The notes under the pieces were generated by a model. It was not told the DNA's origin, did not search any database, and saw only the letters and a program-made list of their open reading frames with translations. Position numbers and translations under genes: made by a program. A DNA stretch of 64,000 bases from a virus, in IMG/VR virus record IMGVR_UViG_3300034018_003010. One strand, given 5' to 3'. Below, one piece after another: positions 3-61,498 of the stretch. The first letter of the stretch is position 1, and the number at the start of each line of letters is the position of its first letter.

Positions 3-266
3 TGGAGCCAAGGTTTGTTTCCAGAATGGATGAAGCCAAATAAATCTAAAGTGTTGGTATCGGTTCAAACATGGTCTAAAGGGCAATACTTACTAGCTAC
101 TGTTATAGACAAAGAATTTGATCAAAGAGCGATAGAAGAATTGACTAATTTTTCAGATCAAAATTCTGCTCCTCTTGTTCTCGTTGTTGGCAATAAGGTT
201 TCTATTAAAGGCGGCGAAGATTTCAAAGAAGAATATCAAAGTAAACGAAGGATACCCTTAGCATGA
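3..266 (+). CDS. hypothetical protein, 5'-truncated by window edge
   Basis: Frame is open from base 3 (WSQGLFPEWMKP...). Its stop overlaps the next start (ATGA at 263-266). Confidence 0.6.
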   Translation, partial: WSQGLFPEWMKPNKSKVLVSVQTWSKGQYLLATVIDKEFDQRAIEELTNFSDQNSAPLVLVVGNKVSIKGGEDFKEEYQSKRRIPLA

Positions 267-916
267 TTCCAAAAAAAGCACATGCAATTTGGCTTGGTGG
301 AAAAGAAATGCCTGAAAAGGAATCTTATTATATTGGCAAAAACCAAGCGGTTCTAAAAGATTACAAATTCAAAATTTGGAAAGATGATGAAGTGAAAGAA
401 CTTATATCATCTAGACCTAATTTGAAAACTTTTGCCAATTATGCTTTTGAAAACAAAATATATGCACAGTTAGCAGATTTAAGCAAGCTTCTTATTTTAG
501 AAAAGCATGGAGGATTGACTTTTGATACTGATAATGAGTTCGTAAAGTCTCCAGACGAACACTTGAATTACAATTGGGTTTCTGGATTTGAAAATTATGC
601 TGGAAGACTTATGCCCATAACCGCCGTCATGGCTGCAATTCCAGAACATGGATTTACCAAGTTCTTGATAGCTGCCTACGAACAAATGGACCCCAAATAT
701 ATTTGTCACATTCCAAATACAGAATGGATTTCAAATATGCTTTTTAAAATAGGTGTTCAAAACAATAATCAAAAGCAATATATTGAAAATTTAGATTTAA
801 CTATATTGCCACATAACATATTCTGTGCTACAAAATTTGAAGAAGAAACAGTATCGTTTCATCACTTTTCTGGATTATGGATCCCAAATAATGAAGAAGT
901 TAAGCGAAAATTTTAA
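263..916 (+). CDS. glycosyltransferase, GT32/Och1-like (DxD sugar-binding)
   Basis: N-terminal MIPKKAHAIWLGG, GGLTFDTD (DxD), C-terminal HHFSGLW are typical of this family. Confidence 0.85.
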   Translation: MIPKKAHAIWLGGKEMPEKESYYIGKNQAVLKDYKFKIWKDDEVKELISSRPNLKTFANYAFENKIYAQLADLSKLLILEKHGGLTFDTDNEFVKSPDEHLNYNWVSGFENYAGRLMPITAVMAAIPEHGFTKFLIAAYEQMDPKYICHIPNTEWISNMLFKIGVQNNNQKQYIENLDLTILPHNIFCATKFEEETVSFHHFSGLWIPNNEEVKRKF

Positions 917-1499
917 AGTAGAAAAATTTGGTTTCTTCTCAAATGAAGATCCAACCGATATGCTATTTCAGCATGAAATATGCTGGTCTAGAATATATGA
1001 ATACCCATTTGTATTAAATGAAATTAAAAATTCTGGTATAAAAGACCCTGTTATTCATAATTGTTCATGGGGATTTAGAGATATGCATGTTATATTCAAG
1101 ACGTGTTTGGACCTTGAATATAAAAAATCATATCATTCAGACATAACTCCTTCAACATTATACAATTGTTTTGTTTGGGATATAACAGAGACTCCTAGAG
1201 ATTCTTTGAAAAATCATTTTGATATTGTGTTAAACATTTCTACTTTGGAAGAAGTAAAGCACAACCATGTTGAAGTTTTAGAGAATCACTTGGAGCAAAT
1301 TGCTGATAACGGATTGTTTATCGGCACTTTTGATTATCCTGGGCTGCAATTAGATAAAATAGAAGATTATCTTGGTGTTAAAATAAAAGATTGTAAATCC
1401 AGACTGACTCCGAAGAACTCTAGGTTGCCAGACAAAGCTCTTAACCTTCCGCAAGACTTTTTTGTAGGATACTTGGTATTGAGAAAATGTTCACGCTAA
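891..1499 (+). CDS. SAM-dependent methyltransferase-like protein (degenerate motif I)
   Basis: WSRIYEYPFV, FDIVLNISTLEEV, NGLFIGTFD. ATG 891 preferred over GTG 825, which would overlap the upstream gene heavily. Confidence 0.55.
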   Translation: MKKLSENFKVEKFGFFSNEDPTDMLFQHEICWSRIYEYPFVLNEIKNSGIKDPVIHNCSWGFRDMHVIFKTCLDLEYKKSYHSDITPSTLYNCFVWDITETPRDSLKNHFDIVLNISTLEEVKHNHVEVLENHLEQIADNGLFIGTFDYPGLQLDKIEDYLGVKIKDCKSRLTPKNSRLPDKALNLPQDFFVGYLVLRKCSR

Positions 1500-2551
1500 T
1501 TGCTGGCACAAGACCCGAAATAATTAAACTCGCTCCTTTATATTTTGCTCTTCAAAAGCAAAATGTTAATGTGTGCTGGATTCATTCTGGTCAACACGAT
1601 GCAGATACATATGATTTCTTCGGAATTAGACCGGATGAAAAAATTAATTTAAATAGAAAATCCAATAGCTTATCTGAGCTAACAAGCTTGCTAGTAGAAA
1701 AACTTAGCAATTTGCATTTGTTTAAACTATCAAATAATATTGTTGTTCATGGAGATACAACTACTGCATTTTGTTCTTCTTTAGCATCATATTACACCAA
1801 GAAAAAAGTTTTTCATGTTGAATCTGGACTAAGAACTCATAAAGACGAGCCTTTTCCTGAAGAAAAGAACAGGGAAATGATTGCCAGATTATCTAATCTA
1901 AATTTTGCACCAACAAATGAAGCAAAACAAAATTTAATAAATGAAGGCATTAAAGAAGACAAAATTGTTGTGACTGGAAACACAATTGTGGACGCAACTT
2001 TATATGCCAAGTCCAAAATAAAAACTAATACACAGGATGAAGTCAAAACCATTTTAGTTACCGCCCACAGAAGAGAAAACTGGGGTCAAGGTATGCAAAA
2101 TATTTGCAAGGCTTTGAATATTATTGGGGAAAGTTATAAAGATATTAAAATTATTTTCCCAGTACACCCTAATCCAGAATTAAAAAAAATTATAAAGAAA
2201 GAAATCATCTCTGAAAAAATTGAGCTTTGCAATCCATTCGATTATGGAAACATGATTGAAAAACTATGCAAATCATGGTTGGTTATTACTGATTCAGGCG
2301 GAATTCAAGAAGAATGTGTTACTCTGCAGAAGCCAGTATTAGTATTAAGAAACACAACAGAAAGACAGGAAGTTATAGACATGAAAGCAGGAATACTTGT
2401 TGGAACTGATGTAAACAATATTTGTTCAAGCTTTAACAATCTATATCATGATAAAAATCTTTACGATTCTATGCTTTTACCTTTGGAAAAAAATCCATAT
2501 GGAGATGGAACTGCAAGCCAAAAGATAGCGGAAATATTGTCTAAAGTTTAG
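1487..2551 (+). CDS. wecB: UDP-N-acetylglucosamine 2-epimerase (non-hydrolysing)
   Basis: GTRPEIIK, SGQH, VHGDTTT, HVESGLR, PFPEE, TGNT, HRREN, TDSGGIQEE, NPYGDG motifs. Confidence 0.95.
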   Translation: MFTLIAGTRPEIIKLAPLYFALQKQNVNVCWIHSGQHDADTYDFFGIRPDEKINLNRKSNSLSELTSLLVEKLSNLHLFKLSNNIVVHGDTTTAFCSSLASYYTKKKVFHVESGLRTHKDEPFPEEKNREMIARLSNLNFAPTNEAKQNLINEGIKEDKIVVTGNTIVDATLYAKSKIKTNTQDEVKTILVTAHRRENWGQGMQNICKALNIIGESYKDIKIIFPVHPNPELKKIIKKEIISEKIELCNPFDYGNMIEKLCKSWLVITDSGGIQEECVTLQKPVLVLRNTTERQEVIDMKAGILVGTDVNNICSSFNNLYHDKNLYDSMLLPLEKNPYGDGTASQKIAEILSKV

Positions 2552-3246
2552 AATATCTTATCGCAAATTCTATTATCTTCTGTAGTCTTGTTTCTTGGAA
2601 TGATACTGGTTTCCATGTTTTTATCGAAAGCATAGATACCCATTTGAATTTGGGTAAAAATATCTGCCCTCATGTAGACATCAATGCTTTTGGTAATTCC
2701 AGTTTCTAATACGCTAGATAAAAGCTTTCTTGCCATGAAAGAGTCAATACTATAAGAATGCGCTCTGCAAAGTGTTCTTAATCCATAATATTGCAGATGT
2801 GGAGGTATAGGACCAAATTTAAAACCATTTTTAACTTGTTCTATACTTCCCAAATAATTAATGCAATTGAAAGCTGCATGTGTATCAAACTTTTGAAGCA
2901 TAACAGCATCGTGTTCCAATATGACTATTGGCTTATCAATTTCAACACATCTTGCCCAAAGAGAAACATGTGTCAGAAAATTAGAAATCTCAGCTTTGTC
3001 TAAAGTTGGATTTGGACACTTGATCCATTTGAGCCAGTTTTCATTCTCTAGATGCTTTGGTGCTTTTATGTAATCGCCAAGACCATCAAATGCTTCCCAC
3101 ATCTTGTATGGCATTCCAACTTCTTTGCAGCTTTCTGCACATTGATTTGCCAATTTAACAGATGTTTCATTGTTTGGAAGGTAATTGATGTAAGCTGATT
3201 CAACATCAATTTTATATTTAAATTTAATTGATTCGCTTACATTCAT
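2548..3246 (-). CDS. glycosyltransferase family 25-like
   Basis: EAFDG, THVSLW.RC, ILEHDA, AHSYSI. Start set at ATG 3246 (AAGGAG RBS, ATGA overlap with upstream gene). Confidence 0.75.
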   Translation of the reverse strand: MNVSESIKFKYKIDVESAYINYLPNNETSVKLANQCAESCKEVGMPYKMWEAFDGLGDYIKAPKHLENENWLKWIKCPNPTLDKAEISNFLTHVSLWARCVEIDKPIVILEHDAVMLQKFDTHAAFNCINYLGSIEQVKNGFKFGPIPPHLQYYGLRTLCRAHSYSIDSFMARKLLSSVLETGITKSIDVYMRADIFTQIQMGIYAFDKNMETSIIPRNKTTEDNRICDKIF

Positions 3247-3926
3247 TTTTTCTCCTTGCCAATTTCTGGAATAGTTGTTTCTCCAGCCTGATCGTATGCG
3301 TAGACTCCAAAGCAAAGCATGGCAAATTTATCAAATCTAATAAAACAGTCTGCAGAGGTGTGAATTCCTTTTTCGATCATATGAGTAACTAGATTTTTTG
3401 CCATAGCAGGGTCAATACTATAAGCATGTGTTCTTAACAAATGCCTATAATCTACATTAAGTTGTGCATGAGGTGGAATCATATTCCAATAATTTGAAGA
3501 ATATTGTTCTATGCATCCAAGATAAACGATTGCATTTATAGCACTATGATTTGTAAACTTTTGGACCATAATTGCATCATGTTCAAGGATTGCAATTGGT
3601 CTATCAAGTTCAATGCATTTGCACCACAAACTAAAATGGGAAAGTAGGCAGCATATTTCTGGCTTGGTCAACTTATGATTTATCAATCGAAGCCACTTAA
3701 GCCATGTTGCATTTTGAGAATGTTCAGGTACTTTTATGCCTTCTATTGTTTTGTCGGTTCCATCAAAAGCATCCCAAATTACAGCCTTTTGACCCACTTG
3801 CTTGCAAGATTGAAGACAGCGTTGTCCCATGCTTTCTGAAGCAGCATGACCTTTAATTGTAATAATGTAAGTATTTTCTACTTCTGTATTCCATTTAGAA
3901 TGAAGTGTTTCGTTTAAAATCTGCAT
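3243..3926 (-). CDS. glycosyltransferase family 25-like (paralog of 2548..3246)
   Basis: DAFDG, EICCLLSHFSLWCKC, ILEHDA, THAYSI. Confidence 0.8.
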   Translation of the reverse strand: MQILNETLHSKWNTEVENTYIITIKGHAASESMGQRCLQSCKQVGQKAVIWDAFDGTDKTIEGIKVPEHSQNATWLKWLRLINHKLTKPEICCLLSHFSLWCKCIELDRPIAILEHDAIMVQKFTNHSAINAIVYLGCIEQYSSNYWNMIPPHAQLNVDYRHLLRTHAYSIDPAMAKNLVTHMIEKGIHTSADCFIRFDKFAMLCFGVYAYDQAGETTIPEIGKEKK

Positions 3927-3927
3927 G

Positions 3928-4722
3928 TTAAACCTTTATATTAAATTCATCATACATTGATGCTAAATAAGGTCCAAGAACATCTTTTGGATTAGCACTT
4001 TCTTTTTTTAATGCAGGTCTGATTTTATGCAAATTATCCAGACCCCAAGCCGAATCTTTGTCTTCAGAGCATTTGTTTGCAATATTACCAAAATCATGAC
4101 CAGAATAATCTTCTATTTCTAAAAACTTATAAATATTTTTCAATACCTCTATAGGATTTTTTATTAATTCATCATATTCAACCAAAAACATATTGCTTTT
4201 GTTTTTTTCAAGTCCATGTTTTACACTTTGGTAAGGATCGGAAATATATGCTTTCCATAGCTTTTCCGCCCTGTTTGAAACATTTATCTTTTTATTTTCT
4301 TTTATAAGATCTGCATCTACAAAATTACTTTTACCTTGATTTTTTTCTATCAATGTAATATAAGATGTAATTATTTCAGATATTGGTCTTATTGTACAAA
4401 TTACTTTAGGTTCTTTTCCAGTAAACATTCTTAAAGGAAGTATGTTTCTTGGATGTCCTCTATGCTTATCAAGAACATACTTTGTTGCAACATGATTATA
4501 AAAATTTTCTACTATTGATTTGTAAACATTGTGTGATATAACATTTTTTTCATAAGTATATGTTACATCAAGTTTTGCAAATGCTTCATCTGTATAGCAA
4601 AGAAGATCAAGAAAAGGACTTGTTGGAGTAACTGTAAAATCTGGTCTTTGTCCTATTAAGGACCCCAATAATGTGCTTCCACTTCTTGGAAGACCAGATA
4701 AATAGAAAATTGTTTTATTCAT
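3928..4722 (-). CDS. sulfotransferase family protein
   Basis: PAPS-binding loop GLPRSGSTLL, R...EIITS, VEYDELIKNP...LKNIYKFL. Confidence 0.85.
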   Translation of the reverse strand: MNKTIFYLSGLPRSGSTLLGSLIGQRPDFTVTPTSPFLDLLCYTDEAFAKLDVTYTYEKNVISHNVYKSIVENFYNHVATKYVLDKHRGHPRNILPLRMFTGKEPKVICTIRPISEIITSYITLIEKNQGKSNFVDADLIKENKKINVSNRAEKLWKAYISDPYQSVKHGLEKNKSNMFLVEYDELIKNPIEVLKNIYKFLEIEDYSGHDFGNIANKCSEDKDSAWGLDNLHKIRPALKKESANPKDVLGPYLASMYDEFNIKV

Positions 4723-5080
4723 CTTTACTTTCTTGTTCTTTTGCCAACATGCTCAAATATTGCAATTCAGCGGTTGGTCCAATCTTCTTATTAACAGAAA
4801 TATAAATATCAGCTTTTTTAAATTCTTTAATGTTTAAATAAAGTCTAATTAAAAAAGTTCTAATATCGTATGATAGTTTTGTGTTGTTGGAAGAAGCCAA
4901 GGCTTTTTCTGCAAATTTAATGGCGATTGCATCAGCACAAACTTCTGAATAGGCATTTGCCAATTCAAAATATTGTTCAGTTCTATTTGATATATTTGCA
5001 AATTCATCTAAAATATCAAGAGCTAATTGATTCTTTTTAAGCTCTGTCAACCTTTTTGTAATTGCTACAATCTCACTCAT
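4715..5080 (-). CDS. small TPR-like helical protein
   Basis: Amphipathic helical repeats (YFELANAY...AIKFAEKAL); resembles the N-termini of the two upstream TPR-GTs. Confidence 0.6.
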   Translation of the reverse strand: MSEIVAITKRLTELKKNQLALDILDEFANISNRTEQYFELANAYSEVCADAIAIKFAEKALASSNNTKLSYDIRTFLIRLYLNIKEFKKADIYISVNKKIGPTAELQYLSMLAKEQESKDE

Positions 5081-6438
5081 AAGCCTAATTTCTCCTGTGC
5101 TAGAATTTTGACATCTTCCATAATATCACTCCAAATTCTTGGTGTCTTTTGTCTAACCAAATCCATGCTGTTTCCAAACCAAGGAGTTTTATTGGTTTTT
5201 GTATTAAAAATATAATAATCGGATATTTGAACAATTGTTATGCAGCTTTTGTCTAATGCACCTGCTGCAGGAGAAATAGATGTTGGGCATGTAATAATCA
5301 AATCCATGCTATTGATATATTCTGCTGTATCTACAAAGCTGTTCATTTGCTTGCTTAGGTCAATTATTTCTGGGAACTCCTTCAATTCATTCATTGAAGA
5401 ATCTTTTTGCAGACTATAAAAGTCAACATCCAAATCTTTTACAGCATTATAGAGATCTTTGAGTGGGAAGTTTCTATAGCGTGGATAGTCGTTTCCAGCC
5501 CATCTTATTCCAACCTTCTTCTTTGTGCCTGCCAACTGCTTTGTACCTGCAGTCATATATGGTCCTGTCCACAAGTCCTTTTCTTCTACTCCTAAAAGGA
5601 CTGGAAGATATTGTGAATAGGTCCAAGAATAATCTTTATAGACTTCCAAATCAAGATTTGTAATTACATCATATCCGCTGCTTCTAAACCATTCTGCGGC
5701 ACCTACTCTTCTATTCGCTGCTGCATTTTGATGCCAGTGTCCATACCACTTGACATCAATTCCTCTTTCTTTCAGGTTGTTTAAAAATCTAATATTAATT
5801 ATTTCATCTCCAAGACCAGCTTCGGCAAAAACAATCAGTTTTTTGCAATCACTTGTTCCTTGCCAAAATTCTAGCGGAAGTTCGCTTCTTGAATGATAAT
5901 AAACACCACCAGATTGTAAATTTCTTAATTTGTTACTTTCAAAAACAACTGATTTAATTCCATCAGAAAAGTTTCCTTCTCTCAGTTGATGAGCACCTAA
6001 ATAAGATCTCCTTTTCACAGAATCAATTTCACTTAGGTTTGAATCATCTACAGTATCAAGAAGTTCTTTTGCTTCATCTTTTTGATTATTTTCGTACATA
6101 CAGCCCGCTTTTTCAATTAGTATAGAATTAGATTTTGTTACCTCATAAACTTCATCAAGTAATTTAATTGCCTTTTCTGAGAAAGCAGTATTTCTATAAG
6201 CAGATGCAAGCATTATTTTTACTTGAAGTTTTAAATCGTCTGGAACTTCCATATCTAATAATTTTTGACCATAATAAACAGATTCATCATTTAATCCTCC
6301 TGAAATCAAAGTTTCAAACACATAGAAAATTTCTTGTGGCTCAGAAGAAGCATCTCCTATGGCTTTTAACATAGTTGATGCTAATTCGAATTTATTTAAA
6401 GAAAATAAAGTTCTAGCAATGTTTCTTACATCAGTCAT
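5077..6438 (-). CDS. TPR-domain glycosyltransferase (GT9/heptosyltransferase-like GT-B C-terminus)
   Basis: N-terminal TPR helices, then AEAGLGDEI..RF, VGIRWAG, FYSLQK, DTAEYINSMDLIIT, AGAL, TPWF...VRQ. Confidence 0.8.
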   Translation of the reverse strand: MTDVRNIARTLFSLNKFELASTMLKAIGDASSEPQEIFYVFETLISGGLNDESVYYGQKLLDMEVPDDLKLQVKIMLASAYRNTAFSEKAIKLLDEVYEVTKSNSILIEKAGCMYENNQKDEAKELLDTVDDSNLSEIDSVKRRSYLGAHQLREGNFSDGIKSVVFESNKLRNLQSGGVYYHSRSELPLEFWQGTSDCKKLIVFAEAGLGDEIINIRFLNNLKERGIDVKWYGHWHQNAAANRRVGAAEWFRSSGYDVITNLDLEVYKDYSWTYSQYLPVLLGVEEKDLWTGPYMTAGTKQLAGTKKKVGIRWAGNDYPRYRNFPLKDLYNAVKDLDVDFYSLQKDSSMNELKEFPEIIDLSKQMNSFVDTAEYINSMDLIITCPTSISPAAGALDKSCITIVQISDYYIFNTKTNKTPWFGNSMDLVRQKTPRIWSDIMEDVKILAQEKLGL

Positions 6439-7883: not shown

Positions 7884-8429
7884 TTACTTGATTACCAGCA
7901 CTTTCATATTTGTTTTTAGAAGAACATTATTAAATCTTTCAGCCAGCTTAAGAATTTGATCAAGATCGGGCTGCTTATCACTTTCAAGATATTCAGGATT
8001 TATATTGTATCCAAAATCAATTATTTCTAAATCAATTCCCAAAATATCAGCCAAAGGTTCTACAACAAAAGAATTCGAATTTACAAGATCACAATACTTT
8101 TTACTAAATTGTTTAAAATTATCAACAGTTATTGGTCTCTTATGAGTATTATCTGAATACCATGCATTACTTCTATGATGTGTAGATGTAATGTTTATTA
8201 TTGAACCCATTTTGCATATTCTATAGAGTTCTTTAATACAAGTGTAAAAACCATCTCCCAAGTATTCTAGAACATTATTAGCATAAACTTCATCGACAGA
8301 ATCAGTGTCTAATGGGTATGCTTCTTGTTCAAGGTTCCAAACAATATTTGGGTTTAAAAAACTATATCTATCAAGTGTTGTAACTCCATCTTCAACTTTT
8401 TCTTTGCCAAAACCAATGTTTAGTTTCAT
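7884..8429 (-). CDS. class I SAM-dependent methyltransferase (type 11-like)
   Basis: KLNIGFG, PLDTDSVDEVYANNVLE, ELYRICK.G; AGGAG RBS upstream. Confidence 0.7.
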   Translation of the reverse strand: MKLNIGFGKEKVEDGVTTLDRYSFLNPNIVWNLEQEAYPLDTDSVDEVYANNVLEYLGDGFYTCIKELYRICKMGSIINITSTHHRSNAWYSDNTHKRPITVDNFKQFSKKYCDLVNSNSFVVEPLADILGIDLEIIDFGYNINPEYLESDKQPDLDQILKLAERFNNVLLKTNMKVLVIK

Positions 8430-29108: not shown

Positions 29109-29127
29109 AAAATCTAGAATATCTTGA

Positions 29128-42767: not shown

Positions 42768-42768
42768 T

Positions 42769-52446: not shown

Positions 52447-52498
52447 TATTAAACTAAAACTGAAGTCCGTTGTTTTCTTGGCTCAAGGATCAAAATCT

Positions 52499-52533
52499 AA
52501 AAACCTCTAGAGATAGTTCTCTGGGGGTTTTTT
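52499..52533 (+). terminator. rho-independent terminator
   Basis: AAAAACCTCTAGAGA-TAGT-TCTCTGGGGGTTTTTT stem with G-U pairs and a T tail. Confidence 0.7.
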
Positions 52534-52553
52534 GCTTAAAGCATATATATTTT

Positions 52554-52826: not shown

Positions 52827-52880
52827 AGTTCTAATCAGCTATTAATTAACTCAATCTTGTTAAAAATTTTACTTCTTGTC

Positions 52881-52888
52881 GATAAATA
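52881..52888 (+). promoter_or_regulatory. late promoter-like GATAAATA, 5 nt before ATG
   Basis: TAAATA at 52883-52888, then AAATT-ATG; no SD. Confidence 0.6.
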
Positions 52889-52893
52889 AAATT

Positions 52894-55800
52894 ATGGCAC
52901 AAGATTATCCACAAATAACATTCGTTGTAAACAATGTAAATATGCAGGAAATTTTAAAATATCCTCCTGTAGATCAAAATTATGACAATGTCATAAATCT
53001 ATTAAAACAAACTACATTTTGGATTTTATATGTTCCATATGAATTAAGACATGAAGATTGCTTTACACTTTATGGAAAAGAAGCTTTAGAAGTTCAAAAA
53101 ATTTATATAACAGACGTACAAGAAAACCTAAGAAAACTTGAAATAGGTTACTATGGCATACCAACAACTGATTGCACATGCAAATGCTTAATACAAACAG
53201 ATCCAGCAAGCATAAATATTCAGCAGGTTGGCACCTCTTTATCGGTAGCAATGTCAGCTACTGGTGGCAAATCTCCTTATACATATTCTCTTGATTCTGG
53301 AGTTTTTCCTCCTGGTGTAACCATTTCTTCAACTGGAGTTATAAGTGGAACACCGACTGCTTCAGGGTCTTACGAATTTTCTATTTTAGTAAGTGATGGA
53401 ATTAACAGCGCAATAAAAACTTATAGAATAAAAGTAAAACCTCTAATCGCATTTGCACCCGCATCATTGCCAGCAACAACTCAATCTATTGCTTATAATC
53501 AAACAGTTACAGCATCTGGCGGACTTGCTCCATATGCATACAGTATTATTTCAGGATCATTGCCAACTGGATTGAGTCTAAATTCAGCAACTGGAGCCAT
53601 TACTGGAACTCCTACAACTCCAGGAACTTATAATTTCACTATAGAAGCAACCGATGGAAACAGTGATATAGGTAGCAAAGCATATACAGTAACAATAAAT
53701 AATCCTGTATTAATATCTACAGCAACACTGCCAGACACAACGGAAGGGGAAGTATATAGCCAAACTGTTTCTTCAACAGGAGGAACAGGAGCTGTAACAT
53801 TCTCCGTTTCTTCTGGTTCTTTGCCAACAGGACTAAGCCTAAATGCTGCAACAGGAGTAATAAGCGGAACTGTTACTGTAGCCGGAACTTATAATTTCAC
53901 AATAACAGGAACTGATACAGTAGGAGCAACAGGAAACAAAGCCTACTCTGTTGTTATAAATCCACCAGTAGCGGTTACTCCCTCAACTTTACCAGACACA
54001 ACAATAACAATACCATATTCACAAACAGTAACTGCGACTGGCGGCACAGGCACAAAGACATATGCAGTAACATTTGGATCTTTACCAACAGGACTAAGCT
54101 TAAATACCGCTACCGGACTAGTAAGCGGAACTCCAATTACTGCAGGTCTTTACAATTTTGCCATAACAGCAACCGACACAGTAGGAGCAACGGGAAATAC
54201 TATTTATAATGTAAATATTAATCCTGCCATAACATTAGCTCCAGCAACTCTACCAGCAACAACAGAAAATGTAGCTTATAGCCAAACTGTCACAGCATCT
54301 AACGGAACTGGAACAAAGACATATACATTATCTTCTGGTTCTTTGCCAACAGGACTAAGCTTAAACGCCGCAACAGGTGTTATAAGTGGCACACCTACTG
54401 CTGCTGGAAGCTATACTTTTGATATAACAGCAACAGATACTGTGGGGGCAACAGGAACAATAACTTACACAACAACAATAAATGCAGCCATGACTATGGC
54501 TCCAGCTTCTTTGCCAACAACAACACAAGGAGTTGCTTATAACCAAACTGTTACAGCATCTAATGGCACAGGAGCAAAGACATATACTGTAACCTCTGGA
54601 AGCTTACCAACAGGACTAAGCCTAAATGCTTCAAGCGGTGCAATAACAGGAACTGCAACTGCTGCTGCTACTTACAACTTTACAATTACAGCCACAGATA
54701 CTGTAGGCGCAACTGTAAGTCAGCCATACACAGTATTAGTAAATGTTCCACTTTCAATATCTCCTGCAACTCTACCAGATACAACAATAAATGTTGCTTA
54801 CAGCCAAACAATAACAGGAACAGGTGGAACTGCTCCTCTTGCTTATTCAGTATCTGCTGGTTCTTTGCCAGCAGGATTAAGTATAAATGCCACAACGGGG
54901 GCAATAACTGGAACTCCAACTGCAACAGGCGCTTCGAGTTTCACAATTACTGTAACAGACGCAAATGGTGCGACAGCAAGCCAAGCATATACAGTAACAA
55001 TTAATGCTGCAGTTACAGTATCTCCAGCAACTCTACCAGATACAACAATAAATGTTGCATACAGTCAAACAGTATCCGCTTCTAATGGAACAGGAGCTAA
55101 GACATTCTCAGTAACTTCTGGTTCTCTACCAACAGGATTAAGCTTAAACGGTGCATCTGGTGTTATAAGTGGAACACCAACGGCTACAGGAACATCTAAT
55201 TTCACAATTACAGCTACAGATACAGTAGGAGCAACAGGAAGTCAAGCTTATACCGTTGTTATAAACCCAGCAGTTTCAATTACAACTGCAACTCTACCAG
55301 ATACAACAATAAATGTTGCTTACAACCAAACCGTTGCTGCAACAGGTGGTACAGGAGCAAAGACATTCTCAGTAACTTCTGGAAGCTTACCAACAGGATT
55401 AACCTTAACAGGCGCCTCTGGTGTTATAAGCGGAACTTCTACTGCTGCAGCAACATACAACTTCACAGTCACAGCTACCGATACAGTAGGAGCAACAGGA
55501 AGCCAAGCCTATAGCGTTGTTGTAAGCGGAGCTCTTTCAATATCTCCTGCAACATTACCAGACACAACAATAAATACTGCTTACAGTCAGACAATAACAG
55601 CATCAGGTGGAACAGCTCCTATTACTTATTCTGTTTCTGCTGGTTCATTGCCAACTGGCTTAAGCCTAGATGCCAATACTGGTGTAATAAGCGGAACTCC
55701 AACAAGTGCTGCGACATCAAACTTTACAATTACAGCTACAGATGCTTCTTTGGCAACAGCAAGCCAAGCTTACTCAGTCACAATAAACCCAGCTATTTCT

Positions 55801-57468
55801 GTATCGCCAGCAACACTACCAGACACAACAATAAATGTTGCCTACTCACAGACAGTAACAGCCTCCAATGGTACTGGAGCCAAGACATACTCTGTAACAT
55901 CTGGTTCTCTACCAACAGGATTAAGCCTAACAGGAGCTTCTGGTGTTATAAGCGGAACTCCAACTGCTACAGGAACATCAAACTTCACAATCACAGCTAC
56001 CGATACCGTTGGAGCAACAGGAAGCCAAGCTTACTCAGTCACTATTAATAGTGCTGTTTCAATTACAACAGCTACTTTGCCAGACACAACAATAAACACG
56101 GCTTATTCTCAAACTGTTTCTGCAACAGGAGGAACTGGAGCCAAGACATTCTCCGTAACTTCTGGTTCTCTACCAACAGGATTAAGCCTAACAGGAGCTT
56201 CTGGCGTTATAAGTGGCACACCAACAAGTGCTGCAACATACAACTTCACAATAACAGCTACCGATACCGTTGGAGCAACAGCAAACCAAGCTTACACAGT
56301 TGTTATAAATTCAGCAGTTTCAATTACAACAGCAACACTTCCAAATCCCGTTGTTGGAACTGCCTATAACGAAACTGTTGCTGCAACAGGAGGAACTGGG
56401 GCTAAGACATTCTCTGTTACTGTTGGATCTTTGCCAGCAGGATTAAGCCTAGCAGGAGCATCTGGTGTTATAAGTGGAACTCCTACAACTACAGGAGCCG
56501 TTTCTTTCACAATTACAGCTACCGATACCGTTGGAGCTACAGGCAGCCAAGCTTACACAGTAACAGTACAAGCAGCAGCAACAACAACTACCACACCCGC
56601 ACCTACTACCACAACTACTACCACAACTACTACTACAACCACGCCTACACCCACAACAACTACTACCACAACCACACCTGTTCCAACCACAACAACTACC
56701 ACACCCGCACCTACAACCACAACAACTACCACACCCGCACCTACAACCACAACAACTACCACACCCGCACCTACAACCACAACAACTACCACACCCGCAC
56801 CTACAACAACTACAACCACACCAGTTCCAACTACCACAACAACAACTCCCGCACCTACAACAACTACAACCACACCAGTTCCAACTACCACAACAACTAC
56901 AACAACCACGACAACTACACCTGCTCCTAGCTGCATAGTTGTAGACACAGGTAACACAAGCGATATGACTCACGCACAGCTTGCAAGCCCTGCAGATGGT
57001 ATCTCTTACAGCAATAACTCTGTTGCAGGAACAACCACTACAACAACACCCGTTCCAACAACTACAACAACAACTACACCGGCTGGTGGGGCAACACCAA
57101 TAAGTGGTGGAGCAGGTTGCTTGACAGCGACAGATATGAATTCAATTGGTATAGCAAATAAATATTTAATATCTATAGATGATACAAATCAATACTGGTA
57201 TAATATTAATGTATCCAAAGCTGTTTGGTCTGTTAAAAAAATATACATAAATACAACAGATACAATAAATCTAGGATGGATCGGCAACGACAGTTGTACA
57301 GATCAAAATGACTATTATGGTACAAATACTTGGTCTAGCGGAGTAGAAATTGCAACTATGCCTTGGACAATTGATGATCCATTGTCTAACAATGGAACAT
57401 TTAAAATTTGGATAATGTTACCATCAGGTGCTAGCGCAGCTTCTTATGAACTTTGGATAGACGATTAA
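52894..57468 (+). CDS. virion-surface protein: YPQI module, 13 putative Ig (He_PIG-like) repeats, Thr/Pro tract, C-terminal domain
   Basis: 87-aa repeats LPDTT..AYSQT..A.GG....SV.SGSLPTGLSL...G.ISGTPT....FTITATD. Start ATG 52894 by paralog alignment. Confidence 0.88.
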   Translation: MAQDYPQITFVVNNVNMQEILKYPPVDQNYDNVINLLKQTTFWILYVPYELRHEDCFTLYGKEALEVQKIYITDVQENLRKLEIGYYGIPTTDCTCKCLIQTDPASINIQQVGTSLSVAMSATGGKSPYTYSLDSGVFPPGVTISSTGVISGTPTASGSYEFSILVSDGINSAIKTYRIKVKPLIAFAPASLPATTQSIAYNQTVTASGGLAPYAYSIISGSLPTGLSLNSATGAITGTPTTPGTYNFTIEATDGNSDIGSKAYTVTINNPVLISTATLPDTTEGEVYSQTVSSTGGTGAVTFSVSSGSLPTGLSLNAATGVISGTVTVAGTYNFTITGTDTVGATGNKAYSVVINPPVAVTPSTLPDTTITIPYSQTVTATGGTGTKTYAVTFGSLPTGLSLNTATGLVSGTPITAGLYNFAITATDTVGATGNTIYNVNINPAITLAPATLPATTENVAYSQTVTASNGTGTKTYTLSSGSLPTGLSLNAATGVISGTPTAAGSYTFDITATDTVGATGTITYTTTINAAMTMAPASLPTTTQGVAYNQTVTASNGTGAKTYTVTSGSLPTGLSLNASSGAITGTATAAATYNFTITATDTVGATVSQPYTVLVNVPLSISPATLPDTTINVAYSQTITGTGGTAPLAYSVSAGSLPAGLSINATTGAITGTPTATGASSFTITVTDANGATASQAYTVTINAAVTVSPATLPDTTINVAYSQTVSASNGTGAKTFSVTSGSLPTGLSLNGASGVISGTPTATGTSNFTITATDTVGATGSQAYTVVINPAVSITTATLPDTTINVAYNQTVAATGGTGAKTFSVTSGSLPTGLTLTGASGVISGTSTAAATYNFTVTATDTVGATGSQAYSVVVSGALSISPATLPDTTINTAYSQTITASGGTAPITYSVSAGSLPTGLSLDANTGVISGTPTSAATSNFTITATDASLATASQAYSVTINPAISVSPATLPDTTINVAYSQTVTASNGTGAKTYSVTSGSLPTGLSLTGASGVISGTPTATGTSNFTITATDTVGATGSQAYSVTINSAVSITTATLPDTTINTAYSQTVSATGGTGAKTFSVTSGSLPTGLSLTGASGVISGTPTSAATYNFTITATDTVGATANQAYTVVINSAVSITTATLPNPVVGTAYNETVAATGGTGAKTFSVTVGSLPAGLSLAGASGVISGTPTTTGAVSFTITATDTVGATGSQAYTVTVQAAATTTTTPAPTTTTTTTTTTTTTPTPTTTTTTTTPVPTTTTTTPAPTTTTTTTPAPTTTTTTTPAPTTTTTTTPAPTTTTTTPVPTTTTTTPAPTTTTTTPVPTTTTTTTTTTTTPAPSCIVVDTGNTSDMTHAQLASPADGISYSNNSVAGTTTTTTPVPTTTTTTTPAGGATPISGGAGCLTATDMNSIGIANKYLISIDDTNQYWYNINVSKAVWSVKKIYINTTDTINLGWIGNDSCTDQNDYYGTNTWSSGVEIATMPWTIDDPLSNNGTFKIWIMLPSGASAASYELWIDD
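56580..56925 (+). repeat. Thr/Pro tract with 30-bp tandem repeat (PAPTTTTTTT)
   Basis: ACACCCGCACCTACAACCACAACAACTACC units at 56701, 56731, 56761 and a partial copy at 56791. Confidence 0.9.
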
Positions 57469-57479
57469 AGGAAAAAATT

Positions 57480-58163
57480 ATGGCACAACCAACAATTTAT
57501 GCTAATATAGACTGTGATGGACAAGTAGAAGTCAAAGTAAATAATGACACCGGCTATCCTTGCACCATTATAACAAATACAGGCGTAAATGAATCTATTC
57601 CAAGCACCGGAACTGATGTTTATAGAAATTATAATTTAACAAGCTCAGATTGGGTAAAAGTTGTTGCTGCTCAAGACGCAACTATTGCTGCTAATAAATT
57701 AACTGGAACAATTAAATATATTACTTCTGTAACTACCACTCCTGCTCCGACTACAACCACAACAACTACAACACCGCCTGCAGGAAATGCATTGCCAGCA
57801 GGCGGAGCAGATTGCGACAATAATACAAATTGGCCATCCTCAGATAATACAAAATACCAAGTAACATTCCCAGATACGACTACCGAGTGGACTTATTACT
57901 ATGCTGGTGTAGATACTAAAAAACTATATATGTCGGTTGTAGGAGATCCAACTACTCCAATTTCCACTGGCACAGACAGTGTAAAAGTATGTAGATGTTC
58001 CGATGGAACCTTCCCATGCTTTTTTGATGCTTGCAGTTCGCCAAATGGACCTAGTCTTTTGAGCGGATTCGATATGAGTGCAGCAACTTCAGGAAAATTC
58101 TCAATTCAAGCTAATAATGCCGCACTTACTGGAATAGCATTTGATATTTGGATTGACAATTAA
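57480..58163 (+). CDS. hypothetical virion protein resembling the C-terminus of the upstream Ig protein
   Basis: AAGGA RBS before ATG 57480; TTTTPPAG..LPAGGADC...FDIWIDN versus TTTTPAGG..ISGGAGC...YELWIDD. Confidence 0.7.
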   Translation: MAQPTIYANIDCDGQVEVKVNNDTGYPCTIITNTGVNESIPSTGTDVYRNYNLTSSDWVKVVAAQDATIAANKLTGTIKYITSVTTTPAPTTTTTTTTPPAGNALPAGGADCDNNTNWPSSDNTKYQVTFPDTTTEWTYYYAGVDTKKLYMSVVGDPTTPISTGTDSVKVCRCSDGTFPCFFDACSSPNGPSLLSGFDMSAATSGKFSIQANNAALTGIAFDIWIDN

Positions 58164-58216: not shown

Positions 58217-59095
58217 CTATTTGGCTTCATCTGGAACATCGGTCAAATCCTTATACTTTTCAAAAGCATCTGGATGGACTTCCAACACTCTTACCTTAGC
58301 TCTTTCAACAAAATCCTTTGGTTGGTTCTTCAAGAACCAATTAGCTACAGTCTCTGGATTCTTTCCAGTCTCAAAGTAAGCAATCATATAATTGTAAATC
58401 TTATCAATGATATCCAAACGATATGTGATAGGCTTGCTTCTCAAGAATCTGTGAATCCAACCCAAAGCCGTATGAAGCTTTACCTTGCCACCATTCTTGC
58501 GAACAAGTTCGTGGACATAACCTTCTTCTCCAGCAAAGCCAGAGAAGTTAGGACTAAATCCTGGCCAATGCTCCTTCTTCATCAAAAACATTGCAGTTCC
58601 ATGCATTGGAATCTCAGAAACAGGAGGCAATGGATTCTTTGTGTTCCAAATTCCAAAGAAATCACCACGCCACTTTGGGTCCATATGGGTGGCAATAACA
58701 TCCTTGTTTTCATTCAACAAAGGACCACACCACATGTCCTTGCCAATAAAATCACCATTGATTCCATTCATAATGTAATCAATTGCACCAGCCTGCAAAA
58801 TAACATGGCTGTCTAGCAATAATACATATTCGCCATCAGCATGTTCAAAAACGCTGTTCTTGGCATGTGCTGGTCCCTTTTCCTTTGGAGCATGGACATA
58901 CTTGGCTCCACTCAAAGCACAAAGATTTTCCAAAGACTCTGTCTTCTTTGGAAGATCATCAATCATCAAAAGCTGAATATCTGGACAAGTTCTCGAATTA
59001 CCAGTATGATACATTCTCAAGCAAGATGCTGTCCAAAAAGCACCCTCAATATCATCATGGCAAGCCCAACCAATAGTTAATTTATATTGCGACAT
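58217..59095 (-). CDS. glycosyltransferase family 2-like
   Basis: LLMIDD, GPAHAKN, EYVLLLDSH, PGF...FSGFAGEEGY, WIHRF; AAGGAG RBS before ATG 59095. Confidence 0.82.
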   Translation of the reverse strand: MSQYKLTIGWACHDDIEGAFWTASCLRMYHTGNSRTCPDIQLLMIDDLPKKTESLENLCALSGAKYVHAPKEKGPAHAKNSVFEHADGEYVLLLDSHVILQAGAIDYIMNGINGDFIGKDMWCGPLLNENKDVIATHMDPKWRGDFFGIWNTKNPLPPVSEIPMHGTAMFLMKKEHWPGFSPNFSGFAGEEGYVHELVRKNGGKVKLHTALGWIHRFLRSKPITYRLDIIDKIYNYMIAYFETGKNPETVANWFLKNQPKDFVERAKVRVLEVHPDAFEKYKDLTDVPDEAK

Positions 59096-59109
59096 TTTTT
59101 GCTCCTTTA

Positions 59110-59124
59110 CTATAATCATTATAG
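59110..59124. promoter_or_regulatory. palindromic back-to-back TATAAT elements in a divergent intergenic region
   Basis: CTATAAT-C-ATTATAG. Confidence 0.4.
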
Positions 59125-59153: not shown

Positions 59154-59885
59154 ATGTCAAAGCCTGGTATTTCTTGTTATTGCAGCACTTTTGGAAGACC
59201 AGTAGGTTTAGTAGAAAACTCAATTCAATGCTTTTTAGATCAAGATTATGACGGACCAAAAGAATTAGTTATATTAAATGACCTAAATGTTCAAGAACTT
59301 GTTTTTGATCATCCAGAAGTAAGAATAATAAATCATCCAGAAAGAATAAAACCACTAGGCAAAAAATTTAATGATAATATATTACTTTGCAAGTATGATA
59401 TATTAGCTTGCTGGGAAGATGATGATGTTTTTCTCAAAAATAGGCTTTCTTACAGCTTCGAACATATGAAAAATGGCATTTTTCATACCCCACAAGCTTT
59501 TTTTGAACGTGGCATAAAAGACATCATATTATCTCAAAACATTTTTCATTCCACCCACATGTTCACAAGAGAGTTGTTTGATAAAGTTGGTCGATATACA
59601 GAAGCCGATCAATGTAGCATCGATGTTTCTATTATGGAAAAATTCAGAAAAGAACTTGGACACTATCAACAAGACATGGATGTAAAAGATAGATGGTATA
59701 TTTATGTTTGGGGAGGAGCTGGATCATACCACGGCTCAGGATGGGGACCTTCAAATGAAAACATTTCAGATTCAGCAGCACAAATAGTAGAAATGCAAAT
59801 TGAACAAGGCCATGTAAAAACTGGAAAAATTGTACTTGAGCCAAAATTAAGATACAATTTTTATGAGTATCTTCCAAAAGAATAA
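59154..59885 (+). CDS. glycosyltransferase family 2-like
   Basis: ISCYCSTFGR, FLDQDY.GPKELVILND, LGKKFN, ACWEDDD. Confidence 0.85.
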   Translation: MSKPGISCYCSTFGRPVGLVENSIQCFLDQDYDGPKELVILNDLNVQELVFDHPEVRIINHPERIKPLGKKFNDNILLCKYDILACWEDDDVFLKNRLSYSFEHMKNGIFHTPQAFFERGIKDIILSQNIFHSTHMFTRELFDKVGRYTEADQCSIDVSIMEKFRKELGHYQQDMDVKDRWYIYVWGGAGSYHGSGWGPSNENISDSAAQIVEMQIEQGHVKTGKIVLEPKLRYNFYEYLPKE

Positions 59886-59918
59886 CTATATTATTTTCAT
59901 CCAAAGAAAGGTAAAAAA

Positions 59919-60770
59919 ATGTTACTATCAGAAAAATATTTGGCAGAATCAGTTAACGCTAAAGGAGATCTATCAGAACACCTTTATACAATTAAGAAGT
60001 ATGCGGAAAAATGCGAACACATTACAGAACTAGGTGTTCGCTGGGTCATAAGTACTTGGGCACTGCTTGCCGGAAAGCCAAAAACACTAAATTCTTTTGA
60101 CGTAATTCATTATATTTATCACGGAGTTCCACCCAATAAAATTATTGATGCCGCAAAAGAACAAGGAACTGATTTTAATTTCTTTGAAGAAAATGTACTT
60201 TGTACTGATAAGATTGTTCCAACAGATTTGTTATTTATAGACACTTTACATAGCTACAAGCAATTAAAACTAGAACTTTACCTACATGGAAATAAAGCAA
60301 GAAAATATATAATTATTACAAATACTGTTACTTATGGAAATAGAAATGAAGGACCAGTTTTGTCAGAAAAGTTAGATGGAGAAGCCCTGCATGTATTTAA
60401 TAATCTACAAGACAAGCAAGGTGTAATGACTGCCATTAAAGAATTCGTTGAAGAAAACTCAGAATGGCGAGTCAAGGAATTCTTCAAGAACTGCAATGGT
60501 TTGTGCGTCCTAGAAAGAATCCCCGTCTCTCCAAGCGGATTGGCAGTAACAGGAACATCAATGAGCACCACTTTTACAGGAGTTGCTAACAATGCCCCCG
60601 TTGTTAATAATACCCATGTTGAACAACCCGCTCCTGTACCAGTATTTGTTACGCAACAACCAAACAATCAAAATTCTACAAACAAGCTAATAATAGCAGG
60701 ACTTGTGGGGTTTTGCTTCACCGTAACAGCAGCAGCGGTAGTAACAGCAGTTTACTTCGCAACTCGTTAA
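59919..60770 (+). CDS. methyltransferase (Methyltransf_24-like) with C-terminal linker and hydrophobic tail
   Basis: DLSEHL, ELGVR..STWA, DLLFIDTLHSY.QL..EL; ends LIIAGLVGFCFTVTAAAVVTAVYFATR. Confidence 0.75.
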   Translation: MLLSEKYLAESVNAKGDLSEHLYTIKKYAEKCEHITELGVRWVISTWALLAGKPKTLNSFDVIHYIYHGVPPNKIIDAAKEQGTDFNFFEENVLCTDKIVPTDLLFIDTLHSYKQLKLELYLHGNKARKYIIITNTVTYGNRNEGPVLSEKLDGEALHVFNNLQDKQGVMTAIKEFVEENSEWRVKEFFKNCNGLCVLERIPVSPSGLAVTGTSMSTTFTGVANNAPVVNNTHVEQPAPVPVFVTQQPNNQNSTNKLIIAGLVGFCFTVTAAAVVTAVYFATR

Positions 60771-60790
60771 TTTTAAATTAAATGCTATTT

Positions 60791-60822
60791 TAGGGGCGAG
60801 AAAATCTCGTCCCTATTTTTTT
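60791..60822 (+). terminator. rho-independent terminator
   Basis: TAGGGGCGAGA-AAA-TCTCGTCCCTA followed by a T tract, between convergent genes. Confidence 0.75.
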
Positions 60823-61498
60823 AAAATATTTTTAAAGCAGGATTTTGCTGCCTCATAACCCAAAAATTAGATTGAGTAGAATTGTAAGTCTTATTATATC
60901 TACGACAAAAATCATTCACAGCGTCTCTAACACCCGTCCAATCAATATCATGCCCAAAGAATACTCCATTCTCATTTAAAAGAGGATAATAAGATTCTAA
61001 ATCAGACATTACACTTTTGTAAGTGTGATCTCCATCAATATAAATCATATCAAATTTAACATTATGAAAAGAAAGAACGTCCGCCGCTAATGTAGAAGGC
61101 AAAGGAATAGGCGTTATATAATTTTCTAATTTTGAATGACAAACATTTGCCAAAAAATTATAATAAAATGAAGGATACCCGTTTACCGTGTTAAACTGCC
61201 TGTCCGGACTGGGATAAGTATAAAACTCAACCGAACCAAGCCATGTGTCTATACAAAAAATATGACCGTCTATATTGTATTTTTTTAAAGCATTAGCCAT
61301 ATTAATTGCAGATTGTCCCTTATATGTTCCAACTTCCGCAATTAAACTTGGCCTATTTGTTTTTATTAAATTTTCAAATACAATATCGTTTCCACCCCAC
61401 CCAAAAACTTCATATGGATAAGATGAAAAATTAAAGCCGCTGTATGTGTCTTCACGCAGCAGCTTTTTTCTTATACTTTGAATAAATTCACTTGCCAA
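60821..61498 (-). CDS. class I SAM methyltransferase (Methyltransf_24-like)
   Basis: EVGTYKGQSA, CIDTW.GS, FDMIYIDGDHTY..V..D, GVFFGHD, GVRDAV. Confidence 0.88.
   Translation of the reverse strand: MASEFIQSIRKKLLREDTYSGFNFSSYPYEVFGWGGNDIVFENLIKTNRPSLIAEVGTYKGQSAINMANALKKYNIDGHIFCIDTWLGSVEFYTYPSPDRQFNTVNGYPSFYYNFLANVCHSKLENYITPIPLPSTLAADVLSFHNVKFDMIYIDGDHTYKSVMSDLESYYPLLNENGVFFGHDIDWTGVRDAVNDFCRRYNKTYNSTQSNFWVMRQQNPALKIF

Follow-up and report, generated by a model that had tools for sequence, protein, structure and literature searches.

The closest analogues of the system described here appear to be the adhesin heptosyltransferases TibC and Aah, together with FlmG of Caulobacter crescentus. 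In the TibC/TibA and Aah/AIDA-I (PDB 4rap) pairs, a soluble cytoplasmic GT9-type enzyme is encoded beside a large repetitive surface protein, its substrate. FlmG, like OGT and SPY, joins an N-terminal TPR domain to a C-terminal GT-B domain, is cytoplasmic and acts on a protein substrate; it O-glycosylates flagellin, which is later assembled outside the cell (PMC7591256). We analyzed a stretch of 64,000 nucleotides of viral DNA (IMG/VR record IMGVR_UViG_3300034018_003010, hereafter the window) in which about 20 soluble sugar-, methyl- and sulfate-adding enzymes are interleaved with tail-fibre and propeller-protein genes. One set of these enzymes, which we call module A, is predicted to comprise a TPR plus GT9-like glycosyltransferase (TPR-GT), a small S-adenosylmethionine (SAM) methyltransferase and a sulfotransferase resembling the tyrosylprotein sulfotransferases (TPST), often with a GT25 glycosyltransferase and an HldD-like epimerase, and its genes lie beside genes for RCC1 beta-propellers. 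As with TibC and Aah, a predicted soluble cytoplasmic enzyme of GT9 type stands beside a large repetitive surface protein, an HldD-like epimerase is encoded in the window and TibC is among the top fold matches. The window enzyme differs from TibC and Aah in its N-terminal TPR domain, in a partner that is an RCC1 propeller and not a beta-helix autotransporter, in the accompanying methyltransferase and sulfotransferase and in its phage setting, and its donor and acceptor are putative. The likeness to FlmG and OGT is one of architecture only: the catalytic domain in the window is nearer to GT9 than to GT41, and FlmG transfers pseudaminic acid.

To our knowledge, virion glycosylation has been proven in few phages only. 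The accounts that we found (PMC12619734, PMC12801897, both citing Freeman et al. 2023) mention it for mycobacteriophages alone, where phage glycosyltransferases decorate virion proteins, as proposed here; as far as those accounts go, the glycans are placed on the C-termini of capsid and tail-tube proteins and no TPR-GT9 enzyme, sulfotransferase or RCC1 partner is reported, while the window is known from its genes alone. The cyanomyoviruses P-SSM2, S-SCSM1 and S-SCSM2R are likewise T4-like aquatic phages with many GT2, GT4 and GT25 enzymes and nucleotide-sugar epimerases, S-SCSM2R having 13 glycosyltransferases, perhaps the most in any marine phage; their clusters have been interpreted as modifying the host surface or DNA, and a link to fibre genes is not mentioned (PMC12801897). 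The window, in contrast, packs about 10 glycosyltransferases into 61 kb among fibre genes and adds the TPR-GT9-like and TPST-like enzymes. Our literature searches found no description of module A, nothing relevant on sulfotransferases or heptosyltransferases with phage tail fibres and no report of virion sulfation. An apparent literature match of RCC1 to cyanophages concerned strain numbers of the Roscoff Culture Collection and not the domain. The best reading of the locus, in which we place middling confidence, is that these soluble enzymes decorate the phage fibre proteins in the cytoplasm.

Open reading frame (ORF) calling and family searches placed enzyme clusters at 0.3-9.4, 29.2-33.5 and 58.2-61.5 kb (clusters 1 to 3), flanking fibre-like proteins and giant RCC1 and Ig-like proteins. 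Enzyme calls were made with Pfam, NCBIfam and PHROGs, using curated cut-offs where these are given. The result agrees with an earlier reading of this DNA made without database searches (the sequence-only reading) on the three clusters, the giant proteins that they bracket and the coordinates. The roughly 10 glycosyltransferases proposed in that reading came to eight firm and two probable ones in 61 kb, and its roughly seven methyltransferase domains to five or six: three in 31905-33542, one in 7884-8429, one in 60821-61498 and a doubtful one in 825-1499. The WecB, HldD-like epimerase and sulfotransferase that it named were all identified, the epimerase scoring below the HldD cut-off. The window is an extreme case of the arrangement: its transferases number about 10, the TPR-GT is duplicated, and RCC1 domains form part of Thr-rich giants.

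Module A and its RCC1 neighbours

A profile search with the TPR-GT recovered 80 viral loci, representing 28 lineages at ≤70% identity. An RCC1 gene lay 1-6 genes from the TPR-GT in 23 of the 28 lineages, on the same strand in 21 of these 23; three of the five exceptions had no upstream flank, being cut there. The usual gene order was RCC1 (one to six copies), sulfotransferase, small methyltransferase, TPR-GT. Among the 28 lineages a sulfotransferase was found in 20, a methyltransferase in 21, a GT25 enzyme in 8 and an HldD-like epimerase in 6, and the small methyltransferase (SM181) directly preceded the TPR-GT where it was present (21/28). In the two complete genomes examined, all RCC1 repeats fell within a few kb of the TPR-GT, as one gene in 363 kb and as 50 of 50 repeat matches in 372 kb. 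The reverse search, made from the RCC1 propeller, gave about 9 of 25 distinct loci with a TPR-GT within 10 kb, and many of the others ended at contig ends. The co-occurrence with RCC1 genes that had been raised for the enzymes of the window is therefore positive for the set of TPR-GT9-like enzyme, methyltransferase and sulfotransferase (23/28 lineages).

Among cultured phages, the TPR enzyme was carried only by two freshwater Kyanoviridae, S-SRM01 and BUCT-ZZ01, and by one marine virus. The order in S-SRM01 is tail fibre, RCC1, an ORF of 214 amino acids (aa), RCC1, TPR-GT and, further on, RCC1 and sulfotransferase. In BUCT-ZZ01, whose host is Synechococcus elongatus PCC 7942, a tail fibre gene is followed by a 166-aa ORF, a 700-aa RCC1 protein and a single polypeptide that fuses the GT9-like enzyme to the small methyltransferase. 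The record of this phage (ON615601.1, L186; 6131-9996) annotates the RCC1 protein, which has room for two propellers, as ‘BNR repeat domain protein’ and the fusion as ‘hypothetical protein’. Also new here is this fusion of glycosyltransferase and methyltransferase in a phage that has been cultured and whose host is genetically tractable. At L056, L058, L112, L116 and other loci, conserved ORFs of ~210-230 aa and ~165 aa alternate with RCC1 genes of ~400 aa and have no homologue in the window; in many loci an ORF of ~165-167 aa also lies between the fibre gene and the second enzyme set, module B, described below. These ORFs may encode assembly factors.

A GT9-like gene without the TPR part occurs in two complete Bdellovibrio chromosomes and in several contigs of Bdellovibrionaceae metagenome-assembled genomes (MAGs). 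In four Bdellovibrio-type records (L190, L192, L194, L195) it stands beside RCC1 genes of 770-1,091 aa, with a methyltransferase too in two of the four, which argues against a phage-specific role in host remodelling. Since the linkage of module A to RCC1 genes holds at 26-50% protein identity and across lifestyles, we judge it, on these sequence comparisons, to be functional and not just inherited. The main rival to fibre decoration has the enzymes change the lipopolysaccharide (LPS) core, O-antigen, exopolysaccharide or surface proteins of the host, which might block superinfection or stop progeny sticking to debris, and treats the fibre region as a hypervariable accessory island. We consider this explanation rather unlikely, as it leaves unexplained why module A stays beside RCC1 genes at such low identity, does so in complete genomes and is found there in Bdellovibrio chromosomes too, and likewise the TPR docking domain and the TPST-like sulfotransferase.

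The window encodes two TPR plus GT9-like glycosyltransferases on the minus strand, 33% identical to one another. The gene at 6431-7882 is the widely conserved orthologue, being the better match in 80 of the 80 viral loci and having homologues in S-SRM01 and BUCT-ZZ01; that at 5077-6438 is a paralogue specific to the clade. An AlphaFold (AF2) model of the latter, built on 34 homologues with a mean predicted local distance difference test (pLDDT) of 94.6, has helical repeats at residues 1-176 and a GT-B domain at 196-453. Whole-chain Foldseek comparison returned the TPR-glycosyltransferases XcOGT, SPY and OGT at the top. Exhaustive alignment of the GT-B domain gave WaaF (Z 17.2), a Veillonella GT9 enzyme (16.8), WaaC (16.1) and TibC (15.2; root-mean-square deviation 3.1, 239 residues aligned) as the best matches over 227-239 residues, with other named GT-B enzymes at Z ≤12.4. 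The Pfam family PF01075 (Glyco_transf_9) was matched only by the remote homologues P0070, P0073, P0075 and P0076. Going by the model, ‘TPR-GT9-like’ is the right label for the predicted fold and architecture. A predicted complex of the TPR-GT with an RCC1 propeller scored 0.00 with no verdict from the predictor, and counts neither way.

Two further members of module A adjoin these genes. SM181 (7884-8429, minus strand) is a compact class-I SAM methyltransferase, matching the methyltransferase family phrog_6636 (5.7e-9) and, weakly, Methyltransf_11. The divergent gene at 8476-9372 (plus strand) encodes an HldD-like NAD-dependent nucleotide-sugar epimerase (Pfam Epimerase, 4e-41) whose best NCBIfam model was TIGR02197 (heptose_epim, ADP-heptose 6-epimerase) at 164 bits, GalE reaching only 82. 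Given the modelled GT9 fold and this epimerase, the donor of the GT9-like enzyme may be heptose-like.

The sulfotransferase gene (3928-4722, minus strand) encodes a protein of the type that uses 3'-phosphoadenosine 5'-phosphosulfate (PAPS), with Pfam matches to Sulfotransfer_3 and Sulfotransfer_1 (~4e-13). Its model, built on 23 homologues (pLDDT 88.9), aligned best with TPST1, TPST2 and a tick TPST (Z 19.4, 19.1 and 18.8); the next match had Z 14.9, and heparan-type and carbohydrate sulfotransferases about 13. The family profile searched against the PDB agreed, with TPST1 at 2e-12, TPST2 at 2e-9 and heparan and carbohydrate sulfotransferases above 0.02. The PAPS loop reads GLPRSGST in the phage profile and GVPRSGTT in TPST1, so the GxPRSG(T/S)T pattern is shared with the animal enzymes (PDB 5wri, 3ap3, 8w5z), from which the phage protein differs in having 13% identity and in being soluble and cytoplasmic and not bound to the Golgi membrane. 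From the modelled fold and the profiles, the enzyme most resembles protein-tyrosine sulfotransferases, and its acceptor would be a sugar or a protein. The TPST-like assignment for the sulfotransferase of this cassette is new here. With a TPST-like enzyme as the nearest match, sulfate capping of a glycan, as proposed in the sequence-only reading, is not favoured over direct sulfation of protein.

Direct sulfation of a protein residue, namely tyrosine as with TPST or RaxST, on the RCC1 or fibre proteins would account for the three top folds, the profile E-values and the shared PAPS loop. The glutamate-rich GEETR stretch of TPST1, which we take to hold the catalytic base, falls opposite positions that are not conserved in the phage profile, however, and no conserved Tyr with acidic neighbours was found in 20 RCC1 propellers. 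A glycosyltransferase always accompanies the sulfotransferase, and a sugar acceptor fits equally well. We regard direct protein sulfation as rather improbable.

Fibre genes, module B and threonine-rich tracts

The window has two close relatives. G009:C5 (CAYVOK010000005.1, L187), a contig of 135.6 kb whose GC content is 34% over the stretch examined, had been placed in an ‘uncultured Acidimicrobiaceae’ MAG; it is collinear with the window, including the fibre region, at 79% nucleotide identity in cluster 2, and is probably mis-binned phage DNA that gives no evidence of a host. Its enzymes are 74-97% identical to those of the window (63% for the small TPR protein) and its fibre proteins 44-72%, a contrast that speaks for the decoration reading. 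G006 (IMGVR_UViG_3300008108_007099) is a 91-kb contig with the same parts in rearranged order. It keeps the Thr-rich giants, and the GT32 gene, WecB, the epimerase and cluster 3 are not in its 91 kb. Its CheckV completeness of 15% implies that the genomes of this clade are several hundred kb long.

Cluster 2 forms module B, all on the plus strand: a GT2-like gene (29199-29855; Pfam below cut-off, E 8e-4; PHROG glycosyltransferase, 4.6e-6), two GT4 genes (29858-30889 and 30890-31903; Pfam) and a triple methyltransferase (31905-33542; Pfam and PHROGs), 74-97% identical in G009:C5. A search with the GT4 query gave 27 loci, which fall into 11 lineages at a 90% identity level; nine of these lineages had an intact flank and were informative. 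In all nine, a Ser-Gly fibre gene stood 2-4 genes before the GT2-like gene. The linkage of module B to fibre genes is new here; seen among close relatives, it is weaker evidence than that for module A.

The fibre genes themselves lie on the plus strand. Two Ser-Gly-repeat tail-fibre-like proteins (12193-19887 and 19928-22543; phrog_892 tail fibre at 6.6e-82, phrog_13518, phrog_32822) are separated from a third (24596-28582; phrog_13518 at 2e-45, phrog_892 at 4e-28) by three small LamG_3 proteins (22543-24556; Pfam Laminin_G_3, 1e-6 to 1e-22), and a homologous array follows the fibre gene in L022. The dipeptide ‘SG’ occurs 201, 59 and 95 times in the three fibre proteins against 59, 18 and 30 expected (3-4x), in a periodic repeat of 5 residues. 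Upstream of them is a LamG_3 and glycine-rich fibre-associated protein (9397-12126; Pfam Laminin_G_3 at 7e-19, ALK_LTK_GRD at 6.5e-12), whose product is 44% identical in G009:C5 while the adjacent enzymes are 75-96% identical. Direct reading of the gene at 28614-29108 gives a 164-aa protein with a Thr tract followed by (Pro-Thr)n and (Pro-Ser)n; its C-terminal 89 aa have one homologue, in L156. This product and a 744-aa RCC1 protein of G006 both start with MRR-x5-RP (28614-28650 in the window, 42959-43000 in G006) and continue into a Thr/Ser/Pro tract, and from the sequences this start may be a common N-terminal signal or a recombination module.

The giant proteins follow cluster 2, again on the plus strand, and have no hydrophobic N-terminus. 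A giant RCC1-repeat protein with poly-Thr linkers is encoded by two ORFs (33582-42767 and 42757-46524; WD40_RLD 8e-194, RCC1 1e-142, phrog_4219) and contains five Thr/Ser/Pro tracts of 63-177 aa. The second giant RCC1-repeat protein (46603-52446; Pfam WD40_RLD, 1e-115) is 23% Thr, with Thr tracts of 194 and 203 aa. A He_PIG Ig-like protein with 13 repeats (52876-57468; Pfam PF05345, 8.5e-168) has a 146-aa Thr/Pro tract at residues 1221-1366, and the last gene of the block encodes a 236-aa protein with 16% Thr and no family match (57453-58163). The first RCC1 ORF, of 3061 aa, ends 11 nt past the GTG start of the next (42757-42767), with the break inside a propeller. G009:C5 has the same 11-nt overlap (ORFs 119012-129238 and 129228-133004, the downstream ORF 72% identical), so that the break is conserved and an assembly error is not the cause; either the gene is split or a frameshift is programmed there, as far as can be proposed. 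The products starting at 33582, 46603, 52470 and 52876 share an N-terminal domain of ~90 aa, named ‘YPQITF’, at 34-56% identity to the first. The 118-aa ORF at 52470-52826 is a stand-alone copy of it (39% identical to the N-terminus of the 33582 product). The domain matched no known family; it may serve these proteins as a shared docking module on the virion.

Composition counts confirmed what had been described for these proteins, namely hundreds of Thr in Thr/Pro tracts, the (Pro-Ser)n tract and dense Ser-Gly repeats. Thr makes up 601 of 3061 aa, 449 of 1947, 369 of 1530 and 142 of 1255 in four proteins (1,561 in total), with poly-Thr runs of up to 25. Thr/Pro linkers are classic O-glycan acceptors. 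A single mucin-type pathway of ten transferases, with the poly-Thr/Pro, (Pro-Ser)n and Ser-Gly tracts as main acceptors and a dense glycocalyx as product, would make sense of these very large tracts, and of enzyme clusters that are collinear with the giant genes in G006 and G009:C5. The comparison points elsewhere. Thr-rich RCC1 giants are limited to the clade of the window, and most RCC1 partners in relatives are ~375-425 aa long, which corresponds to one propeller, and have no Thr/Ser/Pro tracts. L118 has a Thr-rich RCC1 giant and none of the window's enzyme homologues within 10 kb, and the giants of G006 stand without GT32, WecB, epimerase and cluster 3. Co-occurrence of the enzymes with Thr-rich tracts was therefore not borne out, and the tracts look like lineage-specific linkers. 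Nothing joins the clusters into a single pathway. We consider the mucin-type pathway decidedly unlikely; glycosylation of the Thr/Pro tracts may occur and is unsupported by the comparison.

The ‘complete pathway’ of the sequence-only reading likewise found no support, as donor synthesis is partial and nothing shows ten transferases building one glycan. The only donor-modifying enzymes in the window are two epimerases. Short APS-kinase-like ORFs occur in both complete genomes, one of them ~4 kb from the TPR-GT; their model coverage is partial, and we did not rely on them.

Site of action and virion proteins

Hydropathy analysis found multiple membrane segments in none of the 35 window ORFs and a single C-terminal anchor only in the product of 59919-60770. 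Pfam and hydropathy revealed no flippase or ABC exporter, polymerase, ligase or initiating phosphoglycosyltransferase in the window. Soluble enzymes, with no membrane or export genes for a lipid-linked glycan in the window, fit modification in the cytoplasm, where virions assemble, and as far as the window goes count against host-envelope remodelling.

In the proposed scheme, the soluble enzymes would act in the cytoplasm of the infected cell on phage fibre proteins, before or during assembly. The TPR domain of module A would dock on the RCC1 beta-propeller, after which a sugar, perhaps heptose-like, would be added by the GT9-like domain, and the methyl- and sulfotransferase would alter that sugar or the protein itself. 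The GT2-like, the two GT4 and the triple methyltransferase enzymes of module B may serve the Ser-Gly-repeat tail-fibre proteins in the same way. Shielding, solubility and receptor binding are plausible roles for the modification.

Published virion proteomes place relatives of the RCC1 proteins in particles. The RCC1 domain of the window belongs to phrog_4219, and three RCC1 proteins of ~40 kDa assigned to phrog_4219 were detected by mass spectrometry in virions of phage W70 (PMC11370258); an RCC1-domain protein of GAP32 is also a structural protein confirmed by mass spectrometry (PMC5259590). An intracellular or host-directed system outside the virion, in which for example the propeller binds a host protein and the enzymes modify it, would draw on a TPR domain that could dock on a host protein and on the lack of proteomics for module-bearing phages. 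This is very improbable in our view, since RCC1 domains are fused into proteins of 2,000-4,300 aa with Ig-like, LamG and linker modules and a common N-terminal domain, S-SRM01, BUCT-ZZ01 and G006 have their RCC1 genes downstream of tail-fibre genes, and RCC1 proteins of the same PHROG are found in virions.

Several points weigh against decoration of fibre proteins by these enzymes. The linkage of module A to RCC1 genes points to a shared function and does not name the acceptor. Module B is known from close relatives at 64-76% identity, so that its linkage may be inherited synteny. Neither TPR-GT has a Pfam glycosyltransferase hit (no PF01075 at E 0.01 or better), PDB sequence searches with both gave no match, and the TPR-GT family profile matched only TPR proteins in the PDB. 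The epimerase fails the HldD equivalog cut-off of 274.6 bits and is HldD-like, not a confirmed HldD, and no GmhA-type SIS_2 match was found in the records of five relatives. The unconserved GEETR positions and the missing acidic-Tyr motif belong here too. A modified virion protein has not been observed for any phage with module A. GT9, GT25, GT4 and GT2 are also classic LPS-core enzymes and are likewise soluble; together with WecB and an HldD-like epimerase they are typical of LPS and enterobacterial common antigen synthesis, which favours host remodelling. Cyanomyovirus glycosyltransferase clusters have been interpreted as remodelling the host cell wall (PMC12801897), and the intergenic motifs of the enzyme clusters are TATAAT-like, not T4-late-like, a weak point on the same side. 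Host remodelling may still apply to GT32, WecB, GT25 and cluster 3. The particle decoration put forward in the sequence-only reading is supported by the linkage of enzyme and fibre genes and by the solubility of the enzymes; Thr/Pro acceptors and a complete pathway are not supported, and glycosylation itself is a prediction.

The source phage, remaining genes and implications

Judged by its sequence, the window comes from an uncultured freshwater jumbo phage, probably T4-like, and covers the part of the genome that encodes the fibres and thus host recognition. The phage origin already assumed in the sequence-only reading is upheld by tail-fibre PHROG matches, an endonuclease of the Hef type of jumbo phages, Kyanoviridae as nearest cultured relatives and gp23 in complete relatives. 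Capsid and terminase genes are not in the window; the complete 363-kb and 372-kb relatives that carry module A encode T4 gp23. Sequence of the window occurs in lake-water and freshwater metagenomes from at least 10 studies, and no RNA data set was listed as containing it. A megablast of 12 kb of the window against phages gave no match, and an exact 53-nt pattern from it did not occur in IMG/VR.

The remaining genes of cluster 1 start with a GT32-like glycosyltransferase with a DXD sugar-binding region (263-916, plus strand; Pfam PF04488, 5.4e-8, 33.9 bits against a cut-off of 23; 88% identity in G009:C5). It is followed on the same strand by a protein of 202-224 aa of no recognized family, a doubtful methyltransferase (825-1499; only Methyltransf_12, E 0.11; 93% identity in G009:C5), and by WecB, a non-hydrolysing UDP-GlcNAc 2-epimerase (1487-2551; Pfam 2e-91, TIGR00236 at 351 bits against a cut-off of 210). 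On the minus strand are two GT25 glycosyltransferases (2548-3315 and 3243-3926; Pfam PF01755, 7.5e-9 and 5.4e-16) and, after the sulfotransferase gene, a small stand-alone TPR-like protein (4715-5080; weak DUF7017 and TPR matches, homologues in 5 related loci). Cluster 3 comprises a GT2 gene (58217-59119, minus strand; Pfam, above cut-off), a GT2-like gene (59154-59885, plus strand; below cut-off, E 3e-3), the uncharacterized protein with the C-terminal membrane anchor (59919-60770, plus strand), and the sugar-O-methyltransferase-like gene MT24 (60821-61498, minus strand; Pfam). A search with the cluster 3 GT2 found three related loci only, too few for a linkage test; in L184 and L185 the gene lies beside a 459-aa RCC1 gene.

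Beyond cluster 3, a gene of the ‘Hef’ homing-endonuclease type with DUF7487 and a Mom-like domain (61538-63295, minus strand), a type known in jumbo and T4-like phages, sits before an ORF at 63380-64000. The G006 homologue of that ORF adjoins the small methyltransferase of cluster 1, so the region has been rearranged around the mobile gene. Phage glycosyltransferases often glycosylate DNA, according to the accounts in PMC12619734 and PMC12801897, and the Mom-like domain could be taken to suggest that some of the transferases hypermodify phage DNA. We attach almost no weight to this idea, as the Mom-like domain belongs to the mobile Hef-type gene, genes for a hydroxymethylase or for nucleotide metabolism are missing from the window, and neither the enzyme families nor the fibre linkage agree with it.

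At 29123-29162, after the Pro-Ser ORF and ahead of cluster 2, lies a hairpin whose arms (gtgtgtttcaaaa/ttttgaaacacac) are 13 bp long; with the T-rich run behind it, this looks like an intrinsic terminator that would divide a fibre operon from an enzyme operon, as far as its sequence tells. The T4 late-promoter motif TATAAATA occurred 13 times in the window against 7.5 expected, a count reached by 5 of 100 shuffles, and the sole copy before a gene is 18 nt upstream of the 19928 start. ATAAATA precedes 24596, 33582 and 46603, and TATAAT-like motifs lie in the divergent promoters of the enzyme clusters. We judged the evidence from all three promoter motifs too weak to use.

In its most specific form, decoration of fibre proteins would mean that aquatic T4-like jumbo phages and Bdellovibrio-type predators use a cytoplasmic kit to attach a methylated, sulfated sugar, or a sugar and sulfotyrosine, to the RCC1 propellers that head their attachment fibres; we offer this version tentatively. 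If it is true, a virion protein would be seen to carry sulfate for the first time, and adhesins would gain a new class of modification. If module A decorates receptor-binding fibres, host range, particle stability and recognition by hosts and grazers could be affected, in a group of phages that is widespread in lakes and in the sea, and many ‘LPS-type’ glycosyltransferases in cyanophage genomes would have to be read differently. The presence of the module in the cultured phages S-SRM01 and BUCT-ZZ01 makes the question directly testable.

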